From contig CAVYTU010000017.1 of assembly GCA_963771465.1 (NCBI GenBank), positions 832,001 to 896,000 of the forward strand: DNA of 64,000 bases. Reading direction: 5' to 3'. The notes beneath the pieces were generated by a model. That model did no database searches and was not told the origin of the DNA. It saw only the letters and a program-made list of their open reading frames with translations. The number at the start of each line of letters is the position of its first letter. Position 1 is the first letter of the stretch. Origin of the DNA: an uncultured delta proteobacterium (GTDB lineage Bacteria > Desulfobacterota > Binatia > UBA9968). A program made the position numbers and the translations under genes. Below are positions 6,655-29,235 of this stretch, piece after piece.

Positions 6655-8168
6655 ATGGCGCAAACCTCTCTCACTCCTCGCATCCAACGGCTCGCTTTAT
6701 TCAACTGCTGCCTGGGTCAGTTCATGAGCGCGGTGGACTCGCGCTCGGTGACCATCGCGCTGCCGACGATATCGCTGCATTTCGGTCTTTCGCTGGACGT
6801 CGTGCAATGGATTCCCCTGGCTTATCAGTTGACCATCGTCGGCTTGGTTCTGAGCATGGCGCGTTTGGGCGACATGTTGGGGCGGAAGAAAGTGTATGCC
6901 GTGGGTTTTCTCTTGCTGGCGACGGGCTCGACGGCTTGCGGGCTGAGCGAATATTTTTGGCTGCTGATTCTTTCTCGCGTCATCGAAGCCGCCGGCGGCG
7001 CCATGGTGCTCGCCAACGGCCGCTCCATCGCATCGACGCTTTATGCCGCTGAAGGCCGCGGCCGCGCGCTCGGCATGATGTCGATGGCGTTTCATGTCGG
7101 CTACATCGCCGGCCCTTCCGTCGGCGGCTTCTTGGTCGATACCGTTGGCTGGCGTTGGTCGTTCTTCATGATCTCGCCCTTGGCGCTCTTGGCGGGTTAC
7201 ATGTCTTGGAAGATTCTGCCGGAGTCGGCCGCCGACAAAGGCGAAGTGACGATCGATCCCTTTGGGCATGTTAGCGCTGTTACTGGTGGCGGTTTCGGTC
7301 ATTGTCGGCCTCCAGCAGATCGCCAAATCCGGCTTCGGCGCATTGCCGATGATATTGTTTCTGTTTGCGGCTTTGTGTTTTTGGTTGTTGCTGCGGGTCG
7401 AGGCTAAAGTTTCGGCGCCGCTGCTCGATCTTGTCGTTGTTCAAGCTTCGCATGCTGACCGCCGCCGTCTTGAGCCACTTTTTCGTGGTCATCACCCATG
7501 CCTCGACATTTTTTCTCCTGCCGTTTTTTCTCCAAGGAATCTTGAAGGTCTCGCCGACGCGAGTTGGGTTGACGATGATTTTCTTTTCGCTGGTGATTGT
7601 CTGTCTGGCGCCGATTGGCGGTTGGCTCGGCGATAAGCTCGGCTCTCGGCTACTTTGCACCGTCGGTTCCATCCTGACGGCGCTCAGCATGGTGGGCTTC
7701 GCTCGCCTGGATGGCGAGAGCACGCAGTTCACGGTTATGCTTTCGCTTATGCTTTTGGGTTTGGGCTGGTCGTGTTTTCAGTCGCCAAACCTAAGCGGCA
7801 TGTTCAATGCCGTCGGGCCGCGCCACGTCGGTTCGGTGAGCGGCTTGTCGCTGACTTCGGCCAACGTCGGCAATGCGATGGGCGTCGCCGTAGGCAGTCT
7901 GCTGTTCCTACGCTGGTTGAATTACTATGGTCTCGAAGGCGCGGTGGTGCCGCCGTACACGGAGTGGGGCGCGAGCCCGGAGATGTTTATCAAGTCGTTT
8001 CAGAACGCTTGGCTGGTGATCGCCGCGCTCGGTTCGGTAGCGATCGTCACGTCAGCGATGCGCGGCGCGGAGGAGGAGGAAGATGACTGGAGTGGACTGA
8101 TGGCGTATTGGAGTGATGAGTTTCAGATACTCGAATACTCCATCACTCCAATTTCAGTAGTTCAGTGA
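6655..8168 (+). CDS. MFS transporter, DHA2/EmrB-QacA-like; split across three frames by two apparent 1-nt insertions (~7261, ~7431)
   Basis: ARLGDMLGRKKVY motif A, GPSVGGFLV..GWRW motif C; homology continues through ORFs 7262-7636 and 7365-8168; true 3' end uncertain. Confidence 0.8.
8088..8152. repeat. Degenerate TGGAGTNN 8-mer fold-back repeat
   Basis: tggagtgatg pairs with catcactcca; same unit family as 9221-9300. Confidence 0.7.
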
Positions 8169-9209
8169 CGTACCGGAGTTTTTCGCTTTGATATTTTCTA
8201 GGACTTTCGCGCCTAGTGCTACGTCGGCGACGCCTTGGCCGGCGTTGTTCTTGTAAAAAGTGATTTGATCGAGGCGGGTGCGGCCTTCGCTGTTGCCTGC
8301 GAGGATCGAGCCGATCTCGATCAGCTGCTCCCACTTGATGACGCCGCGGTTTACCGGATCGAAAATATCGGCTTGCTCATCCTGCATCGCTTGTTGGATC
8401 GATACGATGGCGTGCACGTCGCTACGCGCCAGCGTGGCGTCGTCGATCTCGCGCCGCTTGGCGGCGGTGAAACCGCCTTTGACGAGACCGACGTTGCTGC
8501 CGACGATGGTCGTCACATGCTGGCCGGGCACCAATAAATTACCGTCAAACACCGGTACACTGGAATTGGTCGCGGTTAGAACGATATCGACGCCGCGCAC
8601 GGCCTCAGCCGGCGACGATACCGGAGTGATGTTGAGGTTGGTTACCCGGCCCATTTCTTCGGCGAATTGTTTTCGATTCGCCGGATTGCGGCTGAAGACT
8701 TTGACGGTTTTCAGTTGGCGCACTTGCATGAGCGCGAGCAAGTGATTTTTCGCCTGTCCGGCGGCGCCGAAGATACCCAGGCTTGTGGCATCGGGCCGCG
8801 CCAGCAGATCGGTGCCCACGGCGCTGGTCGCCGCGGTGCGCAGGCCGGTGACCGCGATGTTGTCGGGCAACTCGCTGCAGGTTATCTCGCCGACGATGAT
8901 GCCTTTAAGTTCGCCTTCAGCGGCGTCGTAGAGCACGATGACGGGATGATTGAGGCGCGGATAGACTTGTTCGTTGGCCATCGGCTTGACCCATTCGCAG
9001 TGGGTCATCAGGCCGGTGGCGTTGGCCGCGGGTACGCCGCCTTGATGGACGCTGACGCGCACGCCGGAGGGAATATGAATGCGCCGGCGCGGCGCGTTGA
9101 GCTGCGGGTTCTCACCCCACTGGCGAAATCCCAAACGCACGGCTTCGACCGCTTCGTTCATGGTGACGATGCCGCGAATTTCTTGCGGACTGACGAGAAT
9201 GGGTTGCAT
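8154..9209 (-). CDS. Ornithine cyclodeaminase/mu-crystallin family protein
   Basis: TGLRTAATSAV, GIFGAAGQA, DIVLTATNS, ITFYKNNAGQGVAD; start at MQPILVS. Confidence 0.9.
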   Translation of the reverse strand: MQPILVSPQEIRGIVTMNEAVEAVRLGFRQWGENPQLNAPRRRIHIPSGVRVSVHQGGVPAANATGLMTHCEWVKPMANEQVYPRLNHPVIVLYDAAEGELKGIIVGEITCSELPDNIAVTGLRTAATSAVGTDLLARPDATSLGIFGAAGQAKNHLLALMQVRQLKTVKVFSRNPANRKQFAEEMGRVTNLNITPVSSPAEAVRGVDIVLTATNSSVPVFDGNLLVPGQHVTTIVGSNVGLVKGGFTAAKRREIDDATLARSDVHAIVSIQQAMQDEQADIFDPVNRGVIKWEQLIEIGSILAGNSEGRTRLDQITFYKNNAGQGVADVALGAKVLENIKAKNSGTSLNY

Positions 9210-9220
9210 GGAAACTTCAC

Positions 9221-9300
9221 TGGAGTAATGGAGTGCTGGAGTGTTGGAGTATTGGGTTCCGGAACCCATCACTCCAGTATTCCATTACTCCAATACCCCA
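9221..9300. repeat. 80-bp fold-back of five TGGRNTNN 8-mers and five inverted copies around a perfect 16-bp palindrome
   Basis: TGGAGTAA TGGAGTGC TGGAGTGT TGGAGTAT TGGGTTCC|GGAACCCA TCACTCCA GTATTCCA TTACTCCA ATACCCCA. Confidence 0.9.
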
Positions 9301-9305
9301 TTCTT

Positions 9306-9866
9306 TCAGATCGTCGCGGCGACTTGCGGCCGGGCGATCAAGTTTTCTCCCCAACGTTTGAGGTTCGGATAATGATCATCGATCACTACTTTGTAGCGTT
9401 GGCGCCGGGTGTAAAAGGGGATGAACGTGATATCGGCGAGGGAATATTCGCCGACCAGAAAATCTTTGCCGGCCATCTCTTGGTCCAGGGTTTGGAGATG
9501 TTGCTTCATCTTCTCATCGGCTTTGTCCAAGTTTCGATCGTGCTGCAAATCGCTGGCCGCCGGATGGACGCGCGTGTTCATGAAATCGATCCAGATGCGC
9601 GCCTTGGAGCGCAAGAGCGGATCGCTCGGCATGAGCCGAACTTGCGGAAATTTTTCTTCCAGATACTCGTTCAGAATAGCCGATTCGTAAATCACGCCGT
9701 CGCCGTCGACCAGCACGGGCACTTTGCCGTAGGGATTTTGCCGGACGAGATCTTCCGGCTTGTTCTTAAGATTGACTTCGATCAATTCACACGCGAGCTT
9801 TTTTTCCGAAAGGACAATCCTTGTCCTGTGGGCGTAGGGTCAAGCATGTGCGGTGTAGAGTTTCAT
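9306..9866 (-). CDS. Glutathione S-transferase family protein, predicted selenoprotein (Sec9)
   Basis: GAGGAGG RBS, then MKLYTAHA-TGA-PYAHRTRIVLSEKK in frame with NPYGKVPVL...IYESAILNEYLEE; TGA at 9842-9840 occupies the C of the CPY motif. Confidence 0.85.
9811..9842 (-). promoter_or_regulatory. Bacterial SECIS-like hairpin downstream of the GST UGA
   Basis: UGA, 12-nt spacer, then AGGACAA-GGA-UUGUCCU (7-bp stem, G-first loop). Confidence 0.75.
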
Positions 9867-9948
9867 GGTTTGGCCTCCTCGTAGACCTCTATTTATTACC
9901 ACTCTCGGCGCGAGGAGCGCAACGTCGGGCCGGGAGCGGCGCATGCGA

Positions 9949-9969
9949 ATTCCAGATTACAGATTCCAG
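9949..9969. repeat. Short 7-mer tandem repeat (ATTCCAG ATTACAG ATTCCAG)
   Basis: Same unit as 35823-35890. Confidence 0.5.
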
Positions 9970-9988
9970 AAGTTTGGCCGCTTCTCGT

Positions 9989-10795
9989 CTAGCGGGAGCG
10001 GGTGTCGAGCCGTTCCTGCAGGGCGTCGCCAACTAAGTTGAGCGCGAGCACGGTGAGCATGATGGCGAGGCCGGGGTAGGTGGTGAGATGAGGCGCGACG
10101 AGGAGAAATTGCCGCCCGTCGTTGAGCATCGATCCCCATGACGGCGTCGGCGGTTCGACGCCCAGGCCGAGAAAACTCAGGCTGCCTTCGGCGACGATCG
10201 CCGCTGCCAGGCCGAAGGTGGACTGAATCAAAAGCGGCGGCAGTAGATTGGGCAACAGATGGCGCAGGATGATGCGCCAAGGCGGACAACCGAGAGCGCG
10301 CGCGGCTTGGATGAATTCTCTTTCCCGAAGCGCGAGAATCTCGCCGCGGACCAAGCGCGCATAGCTGGTCCAGCCGATTAAACAGAGCGCGATAATCACG
10401 TGATCGAGCCCCGGCCCGAGCACGGCGGTGAATGCGATGGCGAGCAGAATGCCGGGAAAGGCGAGGAGAATGTCGACCAGTCGCATCGCCAGTTGATCGA
10501 TCCAGCCGCCGCAGTAACCGGACAGTGAGCCGACGATGAGGCCGATGGCTAACGAAAGCGTGACCGTGCTGATGCCGACGAGCAGGGAAATGCGGCCGCC
10601 ATGGAGAATGCGGCTGAGGATATCGCGGCCGAGCTTGTCGGTGCCGAGAGGATGATCGGCGGAATAGCCGGTTAAGTCTTCGGACAGACTCTGCCGCAGC
10701 GGATGGTGCGGCGTGATCAGCGGTGCAAACAGCGCCGAGACGATTAAGACGAGCAAAGTCCCAGCGCCGATAGCGAGCCAGAGTTTGTTATTCAT
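9989..10795 (-). CDS. dppC: Peptide/nickel ABC transporter permease, DppC/OppC-like
   Basis: HPLGTDKLGRDILSR, REFIQAARALG, LSFLGLG..PPTPSWG. Confidence 0.9.
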   Translation of the reverse strand: MNNKLWLAIGAGTLLVLIVSALFAPLITPHHPLRQSLSEDLTGYSADHPLGTDKLGRDILSRILHGGRISLLVGISTVTLSLAIGLIVGSLSGYCGGWIDQLAMRLVDILLAFPGILLAIAFTAVLGPGLDHVIIALCLIGWTSYARLVRGEILALREREFIQAARALGCPPWRIILRHLLPNLLPPLLIQSTFGLAAAIVAEGSLSFLGLGVEPPTPSWGSMLNDGRQFLLVAPHLTTYPGLAIMLTVLALNLVGDALQERLDTRSR

Positions 10796-11717
10796 AGCTC
10801 ACGCGCGGATCGACGAGCTTGTAGACAAGGTCGGTAAAGAAATTTACCAGCAGGTAAGAGACGGCGATCACCAGGACACAGCCTTGGACGAGCGGGTAGT
10901 CGCGCGTCTGGATCGCTTGCACGGTCAAACGGCCGATGCCGGGCCAACTGAAAATCGTTTCGGTGATCAGCGAGCCGGCGAGCACGGCGCCGAATTGCAG
11001 GCTCATGATCGTAACCACGGATATCAGCGCGTTACGCAGCGTGTGTTTGAGCCAGACCTGTTTTTCCGCCAGGCCCTTGGCGCGCGCCGTGCGCACGAAG
11101 TCTTCATGCATCGTCTGCAGCAAACTGGCGCGCAGTATGCGAGTTAAAATAGCCGCCATACCCAAGCCGAGCGTTAGCGCCGGTAAAACTAAATGGCCGA
11201 AACTGCCGCGCCCGGAAACCGGCAACCAGCCGAGTTGAATTGAAAACAAGATCATTAGCAACGGGCCGAGCCAAAAGTTAGGCAGCGAAAGACCGAGCAA
11301 AGAAAAAAACAACGCGGCGCGATCGAGCCAGCGGCCGCGGTTCACCGCGGCGAGAATGGCCAGGGGAAATGAAATGAGTAATGCGGCGATCATGGCGCAC
11401 AGCGCGAGCTGCAAAGTCGCCGGCAGGCGCGCGCCGATGATCGCCCCGACGCTCGCCTGTTCGTAAAGCGAGCGCCCCAGGTCGCCGGTGGAGAAGTTGG
11501 TTAGAAAGTTTCGATATTGGGTCAGCATGGGCTGGTCGAGACCGAGGTTTCGGCGCAGTTCTTGTTTGTCAGCGCTGGTAGCGGTCTCGCCGAGCATAAC
11601 TTCGACCGGGTCGCCGGGGATGAGATGAATCAGCACGAATACCAACGTCAGCGCGCCGAGCAAGGTCGGCAGCAGGAGCAAGAGACGTTGGATGAAATAG
11701 CGTTTCACGGAATCCAT
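10788..11717 (-). CDS. dppB: Peptide/nickel ABC transporter permease, DppB/OppB-like
   Basis: IPGDPV, DFVRTARAKGL, ETIFSWPGIG, RDYPLVQG. Confidence 0.9.
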   Translation of the reverse strand: MDSVKRYFIQRLLLLLPTLLGALTLVFVLIHLIPGDPVEVMLGETATSADKQELRRNLGLDQPMLTQYRNFLTNFSTGDLGRSLYEQASVGAIIGARLPATLQLALCAMIAALLISFPLAILAAVNRGRWLDRAALFFSLLGLSLPNFWLGPLLMILFSIQLGWLPVSGRGSFGHLVLPALTLGLGMAAILTRILRASLLQTMHEDFVRTARAKGLAEKQVWLKHTLRNALISVVTIMSLQFGAVLAGSLITETIFSWPGIGRLTVQAIQTRDYPLVQGCVLVIAVSYLLVNFFTDLVYKLVDPRVSYE

Positions 11718-11748
11718 CTAATACAACTGGATATTCGTTGCGCCCAAT

Positions 11749-11826
11749 TCCGTCATTCCCGCCACGCGGGAATCCAGGTTTGTTGCGCCGAAATGCCCGG
11801 ATACCCGCTTTCGCGGGTATGACGGA
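11749..11826. repeat. REP-like intergenic palindromic element (CGTCATTCCCGC...GCGGGTATGACG)
   Basis: Terminal inverted repeats with two internal hairpins (ATTCCCGC..GCGGGAAT; ATACCCGC..GCGGGTAT). Confidence 0.85.
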
Positions 11827-11837
11827 TCAGAGAACAT

Positions 11838-13379
11838 TCAGCGCATCGATACATTCTTAAACGAAATCAAGTCGCCGTCGGGATAGGGTACGAAGTCTTT
11901 GACCGACGGTTGCTTCACGACGACATTTCTCCACCACCAGAGCGGCACGTAGGGAAGATCCTCGGCGAGTCGTTTTTGGATTTGACTGTAGATGGATTTG
12001 CGTTGGGCTTCGTCCAAGGTCATACGCCCGCGTTCCAGCAATCGGTCTATCTCCGGGTTGCTGTAGCGGCCGCGGTTGTCGCCATTGGGCGGCACGCTGA
12101 CTGAGTGGAAGATCTGATACTGAATATCGGGGTCCAAGATACCGACCCAGGCGAGCGAATAGAGATGAAAATTGCCTTGCTTGATATCGCTGAAAAACGT
12201 GCCCCACTCGTAGCTGCGAATTTCCAGCTCGATGCCGACACTTTGCAGCTGCTCTTTGAGCGCCTCAGCGATGCGCCGGCGCAGATCGATGTTGGTCGTC
12301 TTAAACGACAGGCGAAAGCGCGGCTGCGGTCCGTTGCCGTCAGGATCGCGGTAGCCGGCTTCGTCAAGCAATCTTTTCGCCTTCTCCGGATCATGCGGCC
12401 ATAGTCTAACGCTGTCATCGAAGGCCCAGTTTGCCGGCGCCAGGATACCGCTGGCGGCATCGCCGATGCCTTTAAGCAGATGACGAATGATGGCATCCCG
12501 GTCGATGGCGAGCGCGATGGCTTGGCGTACTCTGGAATGTTGGAGAATCGGGTGGGTCAGGTTAATACCGATGTACTGAAATGTCGTACCCTGATGAACT
12601 CCAATATCCGCGTGGGTATTATTTTTGAGCCACGGCAGCATGTCGGGCTCGATATCGTTTTGCATAAAATCGATGGTGCCTTTTTTAAACTCCAATACCC
12701 GCACCATGGCGTCGGGAACGTTCTTGAATACGACACCGGCGAGTGGCGGTTTGCCGTCGAAATAATTCGCATTGGCTTTCAGGGTGACTTTCTCGCCCGT
12801 ATCCACCGTCTCCAACATGAACGGGCCCGAACCTGGCGGCGGTTTGTCATTGGACGGCGAACCGGCGGGCACGATGCCGAGGGTAAACTGTTCGACAAAG
12901 GGCGCGTGCGGCGCGTTGAGTTCGAAGCGCAACTCGTGGGTGCCGGTTTGTTCGACGGACGCGAGATGCTTGAGCATGCCGCGTTTGGGCGAATGGGTAG
13001 CGGGATTGAGAATCGATTCGAAAGTGTATTTAACATCGGCCGCGGTGAGTGGTCGGCCATCGTGGAAGCGCACGCCGCGGCGTAAATTAAATTCAAAGCT
13101 GCGCTCGTCGAGTCGGCGCCAACTGGCAGCGAGCTCGGGTCGCAGCCGCAAATGCTCATCGGTGCGCAGCAAGGAGCTGTAAATCAGATTGCCGACTCGC
13201 ACGGAATTGGCGTCGGTGGCATGGCGCGGATCGAGCTGAAGCGGCTGGCTTTCGATGCCGGCGACGAGATAACCCGGCGGCCGGTCGGCCGGCGCATTGC
13301 GGCACGCGGTGTTGAATAATACGAGCGTAACGATGAGAGGGAGCAAAAAAGTTCGGCGCGCCAAGCTATTTCTCGACAA
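11838..13379 (-). CDS. Peptide ABC transporter substrate-binding lipoprotein (family 5)
   Basis: Lipobox-like NTAC, LRRGVRFHDGRPLTAADVKYTF, GSGPF, RVRQAIALAIDR. Confidence 0.9.
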   Translation of the reverse strand: MSRNSLARRTFLLPLIVTLVLFNTACRNAPADRPPGYLVAGIESQPLQLDPRHATDANSVRVGNLIYSSLLRTDEHLRLRPELAASWRRLDERSFEFNLRRGVRFHDGRPLTAADVKYTFESILNPATHSPKRGMLKHLASVEQTGTHELRFELNAPHAPFVEQFTLGIVPAGSPSNDKPPPGSGPFMLETVDTGEKVTLKANANYFDGKPPLAGVVFKNVPDAMVRVLEFKKGTIDFMQNDIEPDMLPWLKNNTHADIGVHQGTTFQYIGINLTHPILQHSRVRQAIALAIDRDAIIRHLLKGIGDAASGILAPANWAFDDSVRLWPHDPEKAKRLLDEAGYRDPDGNGPQPRFRLSFKTTNIDLRRRIAEALKEQLQSVGIELEIRSYEWGTFFSDIKQGNFHLYSLAWVGILDPDIQYQIFHSVSVPPNGDNRGRYSNPEIDRLLERGRMTLDEAQRKSIYSQIQKRLAEDLPYVPLWWWRNVVVKQPSVKDFVPYPDGDLISFKNVSMR

Positions 13380-28632: not shown

Positions 28633-29235
28633 CTAAAGTAAAGCCTTGACCGAAGGGCGGGCTTTCACTCGTTCGAGATATTTTCCCAGGCGCGGGAGCG
28701 CCGCATCGGGCAGCACGCCAAATCCCTCGAGCCGGGTGAAGCGCGGAATCAAGTCGGCGTCGACCAGAGAAAAATCGCCGAGCAAGTATTGCTGTTCGCC
28801 GAGCTCATCTTCGAAACGCTGCAGGAGTTTTTTTAGATCGCTCTTGGCGCCGTCGATGGTCGGCTGGCTTTGTTCCTTCGCTTCTTTCATCAGCTCCATG
28901 CGCAGCTTCTGATAAGCCGAGTCAAAGTGCGCCATGCCGTAGTCGACGAGTATCCGCCCTCGGGCTTTTTTCGCCGGGTCTTTCGGCAGCAGCGGCGGAT
29001 TGGGATATTTTTCTTCGAGATATTCGTTGATGATCAGCGACTCATACAGCACGGTGGAGTCGTCGGTCAGCACCGGCACTTTGCCATAAGGATTCATTTG
29101 CAAATATTCCGGGTTTTTCTGTTCTTTCTTGGTGAGATCGACGGGTACGATCTCGTAGGGCAGATTCTTTTCCGCCAATACCACTTTTACTCTTTGACAG
29201 TTAGGCGACGATTTGAAGTCGTAAAGTTTGATCAC
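28633..29235 (-). CDS. Glutathione S-transferase family protein (SPNC type)
   Basis: KLYDFKSSPNCQRV, NPYGKVPVL, LYESLIINEYLEE. Confidence 0.92.
   Translation of the reverse strand: MIKLYDFKSSPNCQRVKVVLAEKNLPYEIVPVDLTKKEQKNPEYLQMNPYGKVPVLTDDSTVLYESLIINEYLEEKYPNPPLLPKDPAKKARGRILVDYGMAHFDSAYQKLRMELMKEAKEQSQPTIDGAKSDLKKLLQRFEDELGEQQYLLGDFSLVDADLIPRFTRLEGFGVLPDAALPRLGKYLERVKARPSVKALL

Follow-up and report, generated by a model that had tools for sequence, protein, structure and literature searches.

The existence of selenoproteins of the glutathione S-transferase (GST) type has been a matter of prediction since four GST-like sequences were derived from the Sargasso Sea metagenome (Zhang, Fomenko and Gladyshev 2005, PMC1088965). 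In the later literature, the Global Ocean Sampling (GOS) data of 2008 gave 12 selenocysteine (Sec) versus 1036 Cys GST-like sequences (PMC2398784), the GST-like selenoprotein, with PF13409/COG0625 and one Sec, is listed in reviews of 2022 and 2026 (PMC9312934, PMC13188914), and the latter describes such families as functionally uncharacterised, with no natural Sec-GST characterised (PMC13188914). Here, a gene of this kind is analysed that lies on the minus strand, at 9306..9866, of a 64,000-nucleotide (nt) stretch of DNA (contig CAVYTU010000017.1 of assembly GCA_963771465.1, positions 832,001 to 896,000; hereafter the window) from an uncultured bacterium of the class Binatia. A first-pass annotation made from the sequence had proposed a natural Sec-GST at this place, which is supported by the Sec/Cys pairing, the conserved hairpin and the Sec machinery set out below. 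Its remark that Sec-GSTs have been reported only sporadically has to be tempered, as GST-like selenoproteins are a listed family in the literature of 2005, 2008, 2022 and 2026.

The likeness to the marine GST-like selenoproteins lies in the GST domain, in the single Sec pairing with Cys in widespread homologs and in the fact that both are bioinformatic predictions. The published members come from marine metagenomes, whereas the clade of the window gene comes from soil, rhizosphere and sediment MAGs (metagenome-assembled genomes) titled ‘Candidatus Binatia’. Another point of comparison is artificial: according to two reviews, GSTs converted to selenoenzymes (e.g., seleno-GST zeta1-1) gain high glutathione-peroxidase activity (PMC9944854), and a Sec-containing GST has been made in Escherichia coli via an inserted fdhF SECIS (Sec insertion sequence; PMC10778597). 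These share with the window gene a Sec in the GST active site, although they are mostly built on Ser/Tyr-type GSTs, while the one described here is natural and of the Cys type. The kind of selenoprotein is therefore one known since 2005, and the window gene extends a catalogued family to abundant soil bacteria. What is new is a conserved operon, two Sec paralog clades and at least two apparent Sec-to-Cys reversions. Order-wide presence, the two clades and the operon were not found in the literature searched (the supplements of the papers, which possibly list taxa, lay outside the search), nor did that literature link Binatia or Binatota to selenoproteins, the word ‘selenocysteine’ occurring together with Binatota only in a reference title.

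The TGA at codon 9 of this gene almost certainly encodes Sec, to judge from the comparisons below. The best explanation of the locus as one whole, that is, a Cys-type Sec-GST whose UGA would be decoded by SelB and a hairpin, which would work through selenolate chemistry and have a role in an operon, is one that we hold with high confidence.

Anatomy of the gene

The coding sequence comprises 186 codons plus a TGA stop at 9308-9306, its sequence and frame being read directly. It is preceded by a Shine-Dalgarno (SD) site, GAGGAGG, at 9874..9880 on the same strand, with a 7-nt spacer to the start codon ATG at 9864..9866. The Sec codon, in the catalytic position U-P-Y, lies at 9840..9842 (minus strand), and one frame runs through it, reading MKLYTAHA before and PYAHRTRIVL after the TGA, so that every element of this arrangement that the first-pass annotation had described is present. 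A bacterial SECIS (bSECIS) hairpin, AGGACAA-GGA-UUGUCCU, occupies 9811..9827 on the minus strand and, as had also been claimed, begins 12 nt past the TGA; its arms and loop are AGGACAA at 9827-9821, GGA at 9820-9818 and TTGTCCT at 9817-9811, with a stem of 7 base pairs (bp) and 19 nt between the UGA and the loop. The list of open reading frames (ORFs) of the window under translation table 11 holds only a 159-amino-acid (aa) ORF at 9306-9785 for this gene, which bears out the earlier statement that the GST as listed lacks its N-terminus: the gene is mis-called as N-terminally truncated by standard ORF calling.

Conservation of the TGA codon across relatives

Two collections of relatives were used. 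The first is a survey of 61 genomes of the same order (11 genera from three families, with record titles ‘Candidatus Binatia’ and the source genome, G000, included). The second is a scan of one genome per species, which returned 575 related stretches, the best 80 of which were kept, all of them from MAGs mostly titled ‘Candidatus Binatia’. The 130 loci retrieved in all represent 95 distinct copies; without the two that come from unpublished genomes (G005 and G035), 93 remain. The deduplicated counts, alignments and tree exclude the loci of these two genomes and any identical to them in sequence, and none of the conclusions depends on them; the raw tallies, such as those of the 61 genomes, of synteny and of selB, still take them in.

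A hit with exactly one TGA was found in at least 57 of the 61 genomes, many of which hold two such copies. As for the other four, a contig end truncates the hit in G033, and nothing beyond hits at the level of paralogs was obtained from G001, G004 and G048. Codon 9 is TGA in 92 of the 93 distinct copies and TGT in the remaining one (L086), which answers in the affirmative the question of whether the TGA recurs in related genomes. The N-termini of these relatives are not decayed, contrary to what the first-pass annotation had named as grounds for rejecting its own proposal: the eight codons before the TGA, the reading frame and the SD site are conserved across the 92 distinct copies, an SD-like motif lies within 20 nt 5' of aligned codon 1 in 86 of them, and codons 1-8 keep the protein sequence while varying synonymously. 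TGA-bearing orthologs of other organisms are thus conserved on both sides of the UGA.

Read error, another of those grounds, is equally countered, since the same TGA appears in public contigs from three studies, which span 9840-9842 with no listed differing letter (X1 and X5 from DNA, X17 from an RNA library). Over their full extent, X1 (9813-10050) and X17 (9815-9965, from a metatranscriptome library) show 0 differences from the window.

Two departures from this uniformity were observed. In one copy (L102:1209-1280) the TGA is followed by TCC, giving U-S-Y, the only case in 86 distinct sequences in which the Sec codon is not followed by Pro. G004, a genome of the same genus that is ~92% complete, carries a full-length selB, yet no Sec-GST ortholog was found in it with the window query (best hit 1e-25).

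A Cys-type GST with predicted Sec at the catalytic position

The protein exceeds the Pfam cut-offs for GST_N_3 (74.2 bits), GST_N_2 (PF13409; 67.6 bits against a cut-off of 25) and GST_C (47.6 bits), its N-terminal GST domain covering residues 3-75 and its C-terminal one approximately residues 109-180. With one Sec codon and a PF13409 domain, it has the two features by which the GST-like selenoprotein family (PF13409/COG0625, single Sec) is recognised. An AlphaFold2 model, built from an alignment of 18 sequences, has the canonical GST topology (predicted local distance difference test, pLDDT, 94.7; predicted template modelling score, pTM, 0.88), with a beta-alpha-beta-alpha-beta-beta-alpha N-domain followed by a helical domain; helix alpha-1 spans residues 10-21, and residue 9 stands directly before it. 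The V-P and E-S motifs (V49-P50 and E61-S62), which form the glutathione site of the GST fold, the Pro being in cis, are invariant in the family alignment. The protein hence shows the thioredoxin-like N-domain, the helical C-domain and both motifs expected of the GST superfamily.

The TGA falls on the catalytic Cys of Cys-type homologs, as the first-pass annotation had anticipated for U-P-Y and as the alignment with Cys-GSTs now makes plain. The full-length Cys homologs P0003 (76% identical) and P0016 (69%) read S-C-P-Y-A-H-R-T-R and G-C-P-Y-A-H-R-T-R, respectively, L086 is a third Cys form, and in the structures 6v91, 4qq7 and 4hoj of the Protein Data Bank (PDB) the column is the Cys of T-C-P-F. 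In human GSTO1 (1eem), the protein reads U-P-Y-A-H-R-T-R-I-V-L on F-C-P-F-A-E-R-T-R-L-V-L, so that Sec stands on Cys32; this correspondence follows from the ungapped alignment of query residue 2 with 1eem residue 25. A search of a collection of 5.8 billion proteins gave a complementary picture, in that the 120 listed homologs are, with few exceptions, 137-168 aa in length and have therefore been cut at or after the TGA in public gene calls, P0003 and P0016 being the only full-length ones (186 aa).

On these grounds, the protein is classed by sequence as a Cys-type GST related to the omega-class and SspA/RegF-like GSTs, with Sec as its catalytic residue. The motif C-P-[FY] at the start of helix alpha-1, typical of omega GSTs, is present with Sec replacing Cys. 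Nevertheless, the omega class is defined by an N-terminal extension before beta-1, which the window protein does not have (its residue 2 corresponds to GSTO1 residue 25, and it has 186 aa versus 241), and by its sequence it is neither a strict omega-class member nor an SspA.

Among the competing explanations, the one that survives best would make the protein a non-enzyme, namely an SspA/RegF-like regulator associated with RNA polymerase in which Sec would be a redox-sensing residue. The closest structures by sequence (E 1e-33 to 7e-31) and fold (template modelling score, TM, 0.80-0.86), 6v91, 4qq7 and 4hoj from beta-proteobacteria, are indeed deposited as stringent starvation protein A or RegF; they have a similar short length (197-211 aa), although they carry Cys instead of Sec and are only ~32% identical. 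Likewise, the best NCBIfam model is that of SspA (NF007016), but its score of 99.8 bits is far from the cut-off of 314, and no NCBIfam equivalog cut-off is reached by the protein. In Foldseek the solved GSTs match with TM 0.80-0.92, the top ones being the glutathione-bound 4hoj, 4qq7 and 6v91, followed by tau and omega GSTs. That glutathione is bound in the nearest structures 4qq7 and 4hoj, which have the Cys, that the glutathione-site V-P and E-S are invariant and that the operon is one of transporter and enzyme genes, not a regulatory context, all speak against a regulator. Moreover, Sec is costly and typically kept where it is catalytic. We therefore regard a regulatory role as very improbable and the catalytic one as preferable.

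The hairpin as a bSECIS

In the 2026 review, a bSECIS is described by a loop of 3-9 nt, a stem of 4-16 bp, a G in the first two loop positions, a UGA-loop distance of 16-37 nt and a minimum free energy (MFE) of -7.5 kcal/mol or lower (PMC13188914). The window hairpin, with its 3-nt GGA loop starting G-G, its 7 bp, its 19 nt and an MFE of -9.0 kcal/mol, lies within these printed limits, and the energy limit is reached by 74 of 76 distinct Sec fragments. Compared with the bSECIS model of the E. coli fdhF type, it is similarly an intragenic stem-loop directly 3' of the UGA, with a small G-G loop and a 19-nt spacing. It differs in being near invariant across paralogs whose proteins are only 51-63% identical to that of the window, in being written wholly on a conserved peptide motif and in having no evident bulged U.

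Synonymous change is almost absent from the hairpin codons, which is a constraint at the RNA level. In the 92 Sec copies R14 is AGG in 87, T15 is ACA in 84, and R16 is AGG and V18 is GTC in all 92; for comparison, the conserved Arg residues 86, 90, 99 and 179 use five to six codons each and the conserved Val residues 49, 51 and 58 use four each. Pairing is possible in 98% of the stem cells across 86 distinct sequences.

A natural control is provided by the Cys form L086, which sits in the same operon as the Sec orthologs. It encodes R-T-R-I-V as AGA ACA CGA ATC GTC, keeping the peptide and losing the hairpin, and its 17-mer folds with 0.0 kcal/mol versus -5.6 to -7.0 kcal/mol in Sec forms. With respect to its nearest Sec relative, L083, three of the five hairpin codons differ synonymously, as many as in only 4 of 3834 Sec-Sec pairs of similar divergence.

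It is this comparison with relatives (TGA in 92 of 93, hairpin near invariant), and not the window alone, that gives the hairpin its significance. Among all 10368 synonymous recodings possible for codons 14-19, 555 (5.4%) fold as well as or better than the window sequence. The earlier proposal to look for covariation of the hairpin met with a divided answer: conservation is evident in the paired cells and the frozen codons, while covariation amounts to one compensatory change, from A-U to U-A in L107, so that the case for the hairpin rests on conservation and pairing potential.

Some further candidates and observations concern the same region. A lower-stem extension (alignment columns 13-15 with 36-38) was dropped, as only 88.8% of its cells pair and its third pair is loose, and an Rfam scan of 9000-10100 returned nothing at the SECIS. 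Besides, in public soil metagenome contigs the depth climbs by a factor of two to three precisely at the hairpin (9801-9831), which fits many relatives sharing the nearly invariant 17-mer.

Sec machinery and the weighing of the evidence

The source genome carries a tRNA-Sec (76.7 bits against a gathering score of 47; tRNA-SeC with anticodon TCA according to ARAGORN) at C13:400992-401082, and selA (614 bits), selB (358.6 bits) and selD (376 bits), all past their cut-offs, lie adjacent at C14:197319-201637. The selD gene has an in-frame TGA of its own (one), and is probably itself a selenoprotein gene. In relatives, selB runs uninterrupted over model positions 2-580 in 20 cases, and counting the source genome a selB match occurs in 22 of 26 genomes and in 13 of 13 high-quality ones. 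The absence of tRNA-Sec or SelB, which the first-pass annotation had named as fatal to its proposal, does not apply in that both are present, although selB is frame-shifted in this assembly.

This last circumstance belongs to several that weigh against a Sec-GST decoded as proposed. The selB gene of the source genome lies in two frames (C14:198726-200613; locus L009, 1377-3345), owing to a 1-nt shift in a T/A homopolymer near codon 28, which is either an assembly indel or a real lesion; if real, the organism could not insert Sec. The Sec machinery is on contigs other than that of the window, in a genome with an estimated contamination of 6.29%. As the assembly holds two other candidate indels, one in a second Sec-GST copy of the same genome (see below) and one in the window ORFs at 6655-8168, an assembly error in selB is plausible, though unproven. 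The latter are two same-strand ORFs (6655-7407 and 7365-8168, plus strand) with a 43-nt overlap that look like halves of one hydrophobic membrane protein and may be another gene split by a frameshift. On the side of the hairpin, the fold of the single 66-nt sequence is unremarkable (z = 0.49; 134 of 200 shuffled sequences fold equally well or better), the stem shows hardly any covariation (five of the seven pairs never vary, with 12 mismatched cells), and RNAalifold keeps only a 4-bp GGAC/GUCC core with a covariation term of 0. The RNA-library contigs X15 and X17 cover parts of the gene, and cannot show its transcription or level. Finally, selenium in the protein, the enzyme activity and the link to the transporter are all predicted from sequence.

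Less probable still than a regulator is that the UGA is read as a standard amino acid (Trp, Cys or Gly), whether by near-cognate decoding or by a lineage-specific change of code. It draws on the fact that sequence by itself cannot tell Sec from another residue at a recoded UGA and, were selB truly broken, low-level near-cognate read-through would be the only route. However, TGA is the terminator in 29 of the 92 GST genes and in 17 of the window's 38 long open frames, and being a common true stop in the lineage it argues against any change of the genetic code. Furthermore, the Sec machinery is complete in the source genome, relatives carry an intact selB, the position is that of the catalytic Cys of homologs, and the hairpin fits a SelB-type SECIS and is lost exactly where TGA became TGT.

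The least probable alternative, a TGA acting as a true stop in a decayed or truncated GST (the 159-aa ORF 9785-9306, from a downstream TTG) or a pseudogene, is what gene callers yield and what the short lengths of nearly all listed homologs, the non-significant single-sequence fold and the frame-shifted selB would suggest. Against it, the upstream codons, SD and frame are conserved with synonymous variation indicating translation, a protein starting at residue 28 would be devoid of beta-1, the catalytic residue and helix alpha-1, and a pseudogene would not have kept a single TGA, always at the same codon, throughout three families of the order.

Proposed decoding and enzyme mechanism

For the Sec-GST, the anatomy of the gene suggests that translation begins at the ATG at 9866 and that SelB, carrying Sec-tRNA(Sec), would recode the UGA at codon 9 as Sec, being recruited by the hairpin, which lies inside the coding sequence for the conserved R-T-R-I-V-L. 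In the protein, residue 9 would be placed at the N-terminal end of helix alpha-1, facing the glutathione site of V49-P50 and E61-S62. The selenolate would attack the sulfur of a glutathionyl mixed disulfide or S-conjugate, or a hydroperoxide, giving an enzyme Se-SG or Se-OH intermediate that a second glutathione would resolve.

Thiol-transferase and reductase chemistry of the Cys type is established for the omega class, and the position of Sec on GSTO1 Cys32 leads us to expect it here. Given this selenolate chemistry and its Se-SG or Se-OH intermediates, the enzyme would be expected to act as a thiol transferase, deglutathionylase, reductase or peroxidase rather than as a classical conjugating GST. 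The peroxidase activity that reviews report for artificially selenated GSTs speaks for such a mechanism (PMC9944854).

Genomic neighbourhood

The Sec-GST gene is the fourth of five genes in the same orientation, in the order binding protein, permease B, permease C, Sec-GST and a gene of the ornithine cyclodeaminase (OCD)/mu-crystallin family, which together form a conserved operon of an ATP-binding cassette (ABC) importer, the selenoenzyme and a cyclodeaminase-family gene. The first, at 11838..13379 (minus), encodes a family-5 ABC substrate-binding protein for which the NCBIfam models Opp4A, NikA, DppA and GsiB all stay below their cut-offs, and the next ORF upstream of it is on the plus strand. 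The ‘B’-type permease gene lies at 10788..11717 (minus; NCBIfam Opp2B 354 bits against a cut-off of 350, GsiC 319) and shares in the conserved synteny, and the ‘C’-type permease gene, of the Opp/Nik/Gsi type, lies at 9989..10795 (minus; Opp2C 300.2 bits against a cut-off of 300, with NikC, Opp4C and GsiD close), directly upstream of the GST. No ATPase gene was found in the ABC cluster at 9989-13379. Downstream of the GST, the OCD-family gene (351 aa) lies at 8154..9209 (minus), with 131.8 bits to Pfam OCD_Mu_crystall and no NCBIfam equivalog cut-off reached. The attempt to read the substrate of the transporter from NCBIfam did not succeed, since the Opp, Nik, Dpp, Gsi and Cnt models score alike, and a glutathione importer is without specific support.

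Among the loci long enough, the five-gene order is kept in nearly all those of one paralog clade (clade A) whose proteins are 65-91% identical to that of the window, while more distant members (55-63%) keep the transporter but not the OCD gene. The GST and OCD genes are separated by 8-40 nt in many relatives, the shortest gaps being of 8-17 nt. Co-transcription of the Sec-GST with the OCD-family gene, proposed in the first-pass annotation, is therefore supported by conserved same-strand synteny and short gaps, although these do not show it directly. A scan of 8000-10100 for promoters and terminators was uninformative, with 0 promoter-like sites and four terminator-like ones against 2.7 expected. 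From its gene neighbours, the Sec-GST probably acts on the imported substrate or on its product, which is the weakest inference of the whole explanation.

The spacer between the two genes in the window holds a palindromic repeat resembling REP (repetitive extragenic palindromic) elements at 9221..9300 (arms 9221-9261 and 9260-9300), outside the selenoprotein gene. It is ~80 nt long and rich in TGGAGT, and a partial copy is found just 3' of the OCD gene at 8093-8150. On the two strands together the genome has 37 matches to the element; one is located immediately 3' of the second Sec-GST copy, and public metagenome contigs pile up on it. Sub-threshold matches of Rfam microRNA (miRNA)-precursor models to this intergenic palindrome were taken as chance.

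Distribution, paralogs and evolution

Among the genomes sampled from the order, the source genome excluded, 7 of 7 gave a close ortholog, against 0 of 53 sampled from other orders of the class at E <= 1e-38, and in a phylum-wide sample 2 of 301 genomes gave a match at E <= 1e-45. The Sec forms fall into two paralog clades, A and B. The second copy in the source genome belongs to clade B (C5:65038-65484; locus L051, ~400-985, minus) and shares the TGA and the hairpin; a frameshift interrupts it near codon 103, and the shifted frame still reads as a good GST C-domain. Around the clade-B locus L124, the ORFs recur in at most 10 of 33 other clade-B loci, and no operon is claimed for this clade.

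The first-pass annotation had pointed to a further paralog in the window as an internal comparison. This gene exists (28633..29235, minus; 38-39% identity), but with S-S-P-N-C-Q-R it has Ser at the Sec-aligned column and no in-frame stop, so that it is a Ser-type GST and not a Cys form, which makes the comparison a weak one; true Cys orthologs are P0003, P0016 and L086, found elsewhere. One additional hit without a stop (G046:C29) was discarded as uninformative, since its contig ends before the Sec position.

In a quick IQ-TREE tree, with SH-aLRT support only and midpoint-rooted for drawing, beside the Ser paralog, the three Cys forms stand at two separate positions within the Sec-bearing clade A: one is shared by L086 and P0016, sister to L083 (support 99), and the other is that of P0003, in the subclade of the window gene (support 84). 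By parsimony, these two positions suggest at least two changes from Sec to Cys.

The observations can be joined into a broader and tentative picture, which taken as a whole we consider rather unlikely. According to it, Sec would be ancestral across the order in two paralog lineages, and the SECIS would be written wholly in synonymous positions of the omega-type signature R-T-R-[IL]-V-L, so that Sec and Cys forms would differ only by one base of codon 9 and silent changes. Reversion to Cys would have taken place at least twice, followed by decay of the hairpin, and the five genes would form a dedicated pathway. Their cluster could import a peptide-like, glutathione-like or thiol-conjugated compound for reductive processing, the selenoenzyme carrying out S-S or C-S cleavage.

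Significance

The general picture of selenoproteins is unchanged by this locus, whose value is one of annotation and of a model system. Regarding annotation, the catalytic residue and the selenium dependence of a gene present in nearly all searched genomes of the order are invisible in databases, because the public gene calls of the clade are almost all N-terminally truncated. For biochemistry, pairs such as L083 and L086, together with a confident model and an operon that hints at the substrate, would allow the contribution of selenium to a Cys-type GST to be tested cleanly. From the point of view of evolution, the family illustrates on a small scale how a SECIS can overlie a conserved peptide motif and decay once Sec is lost.

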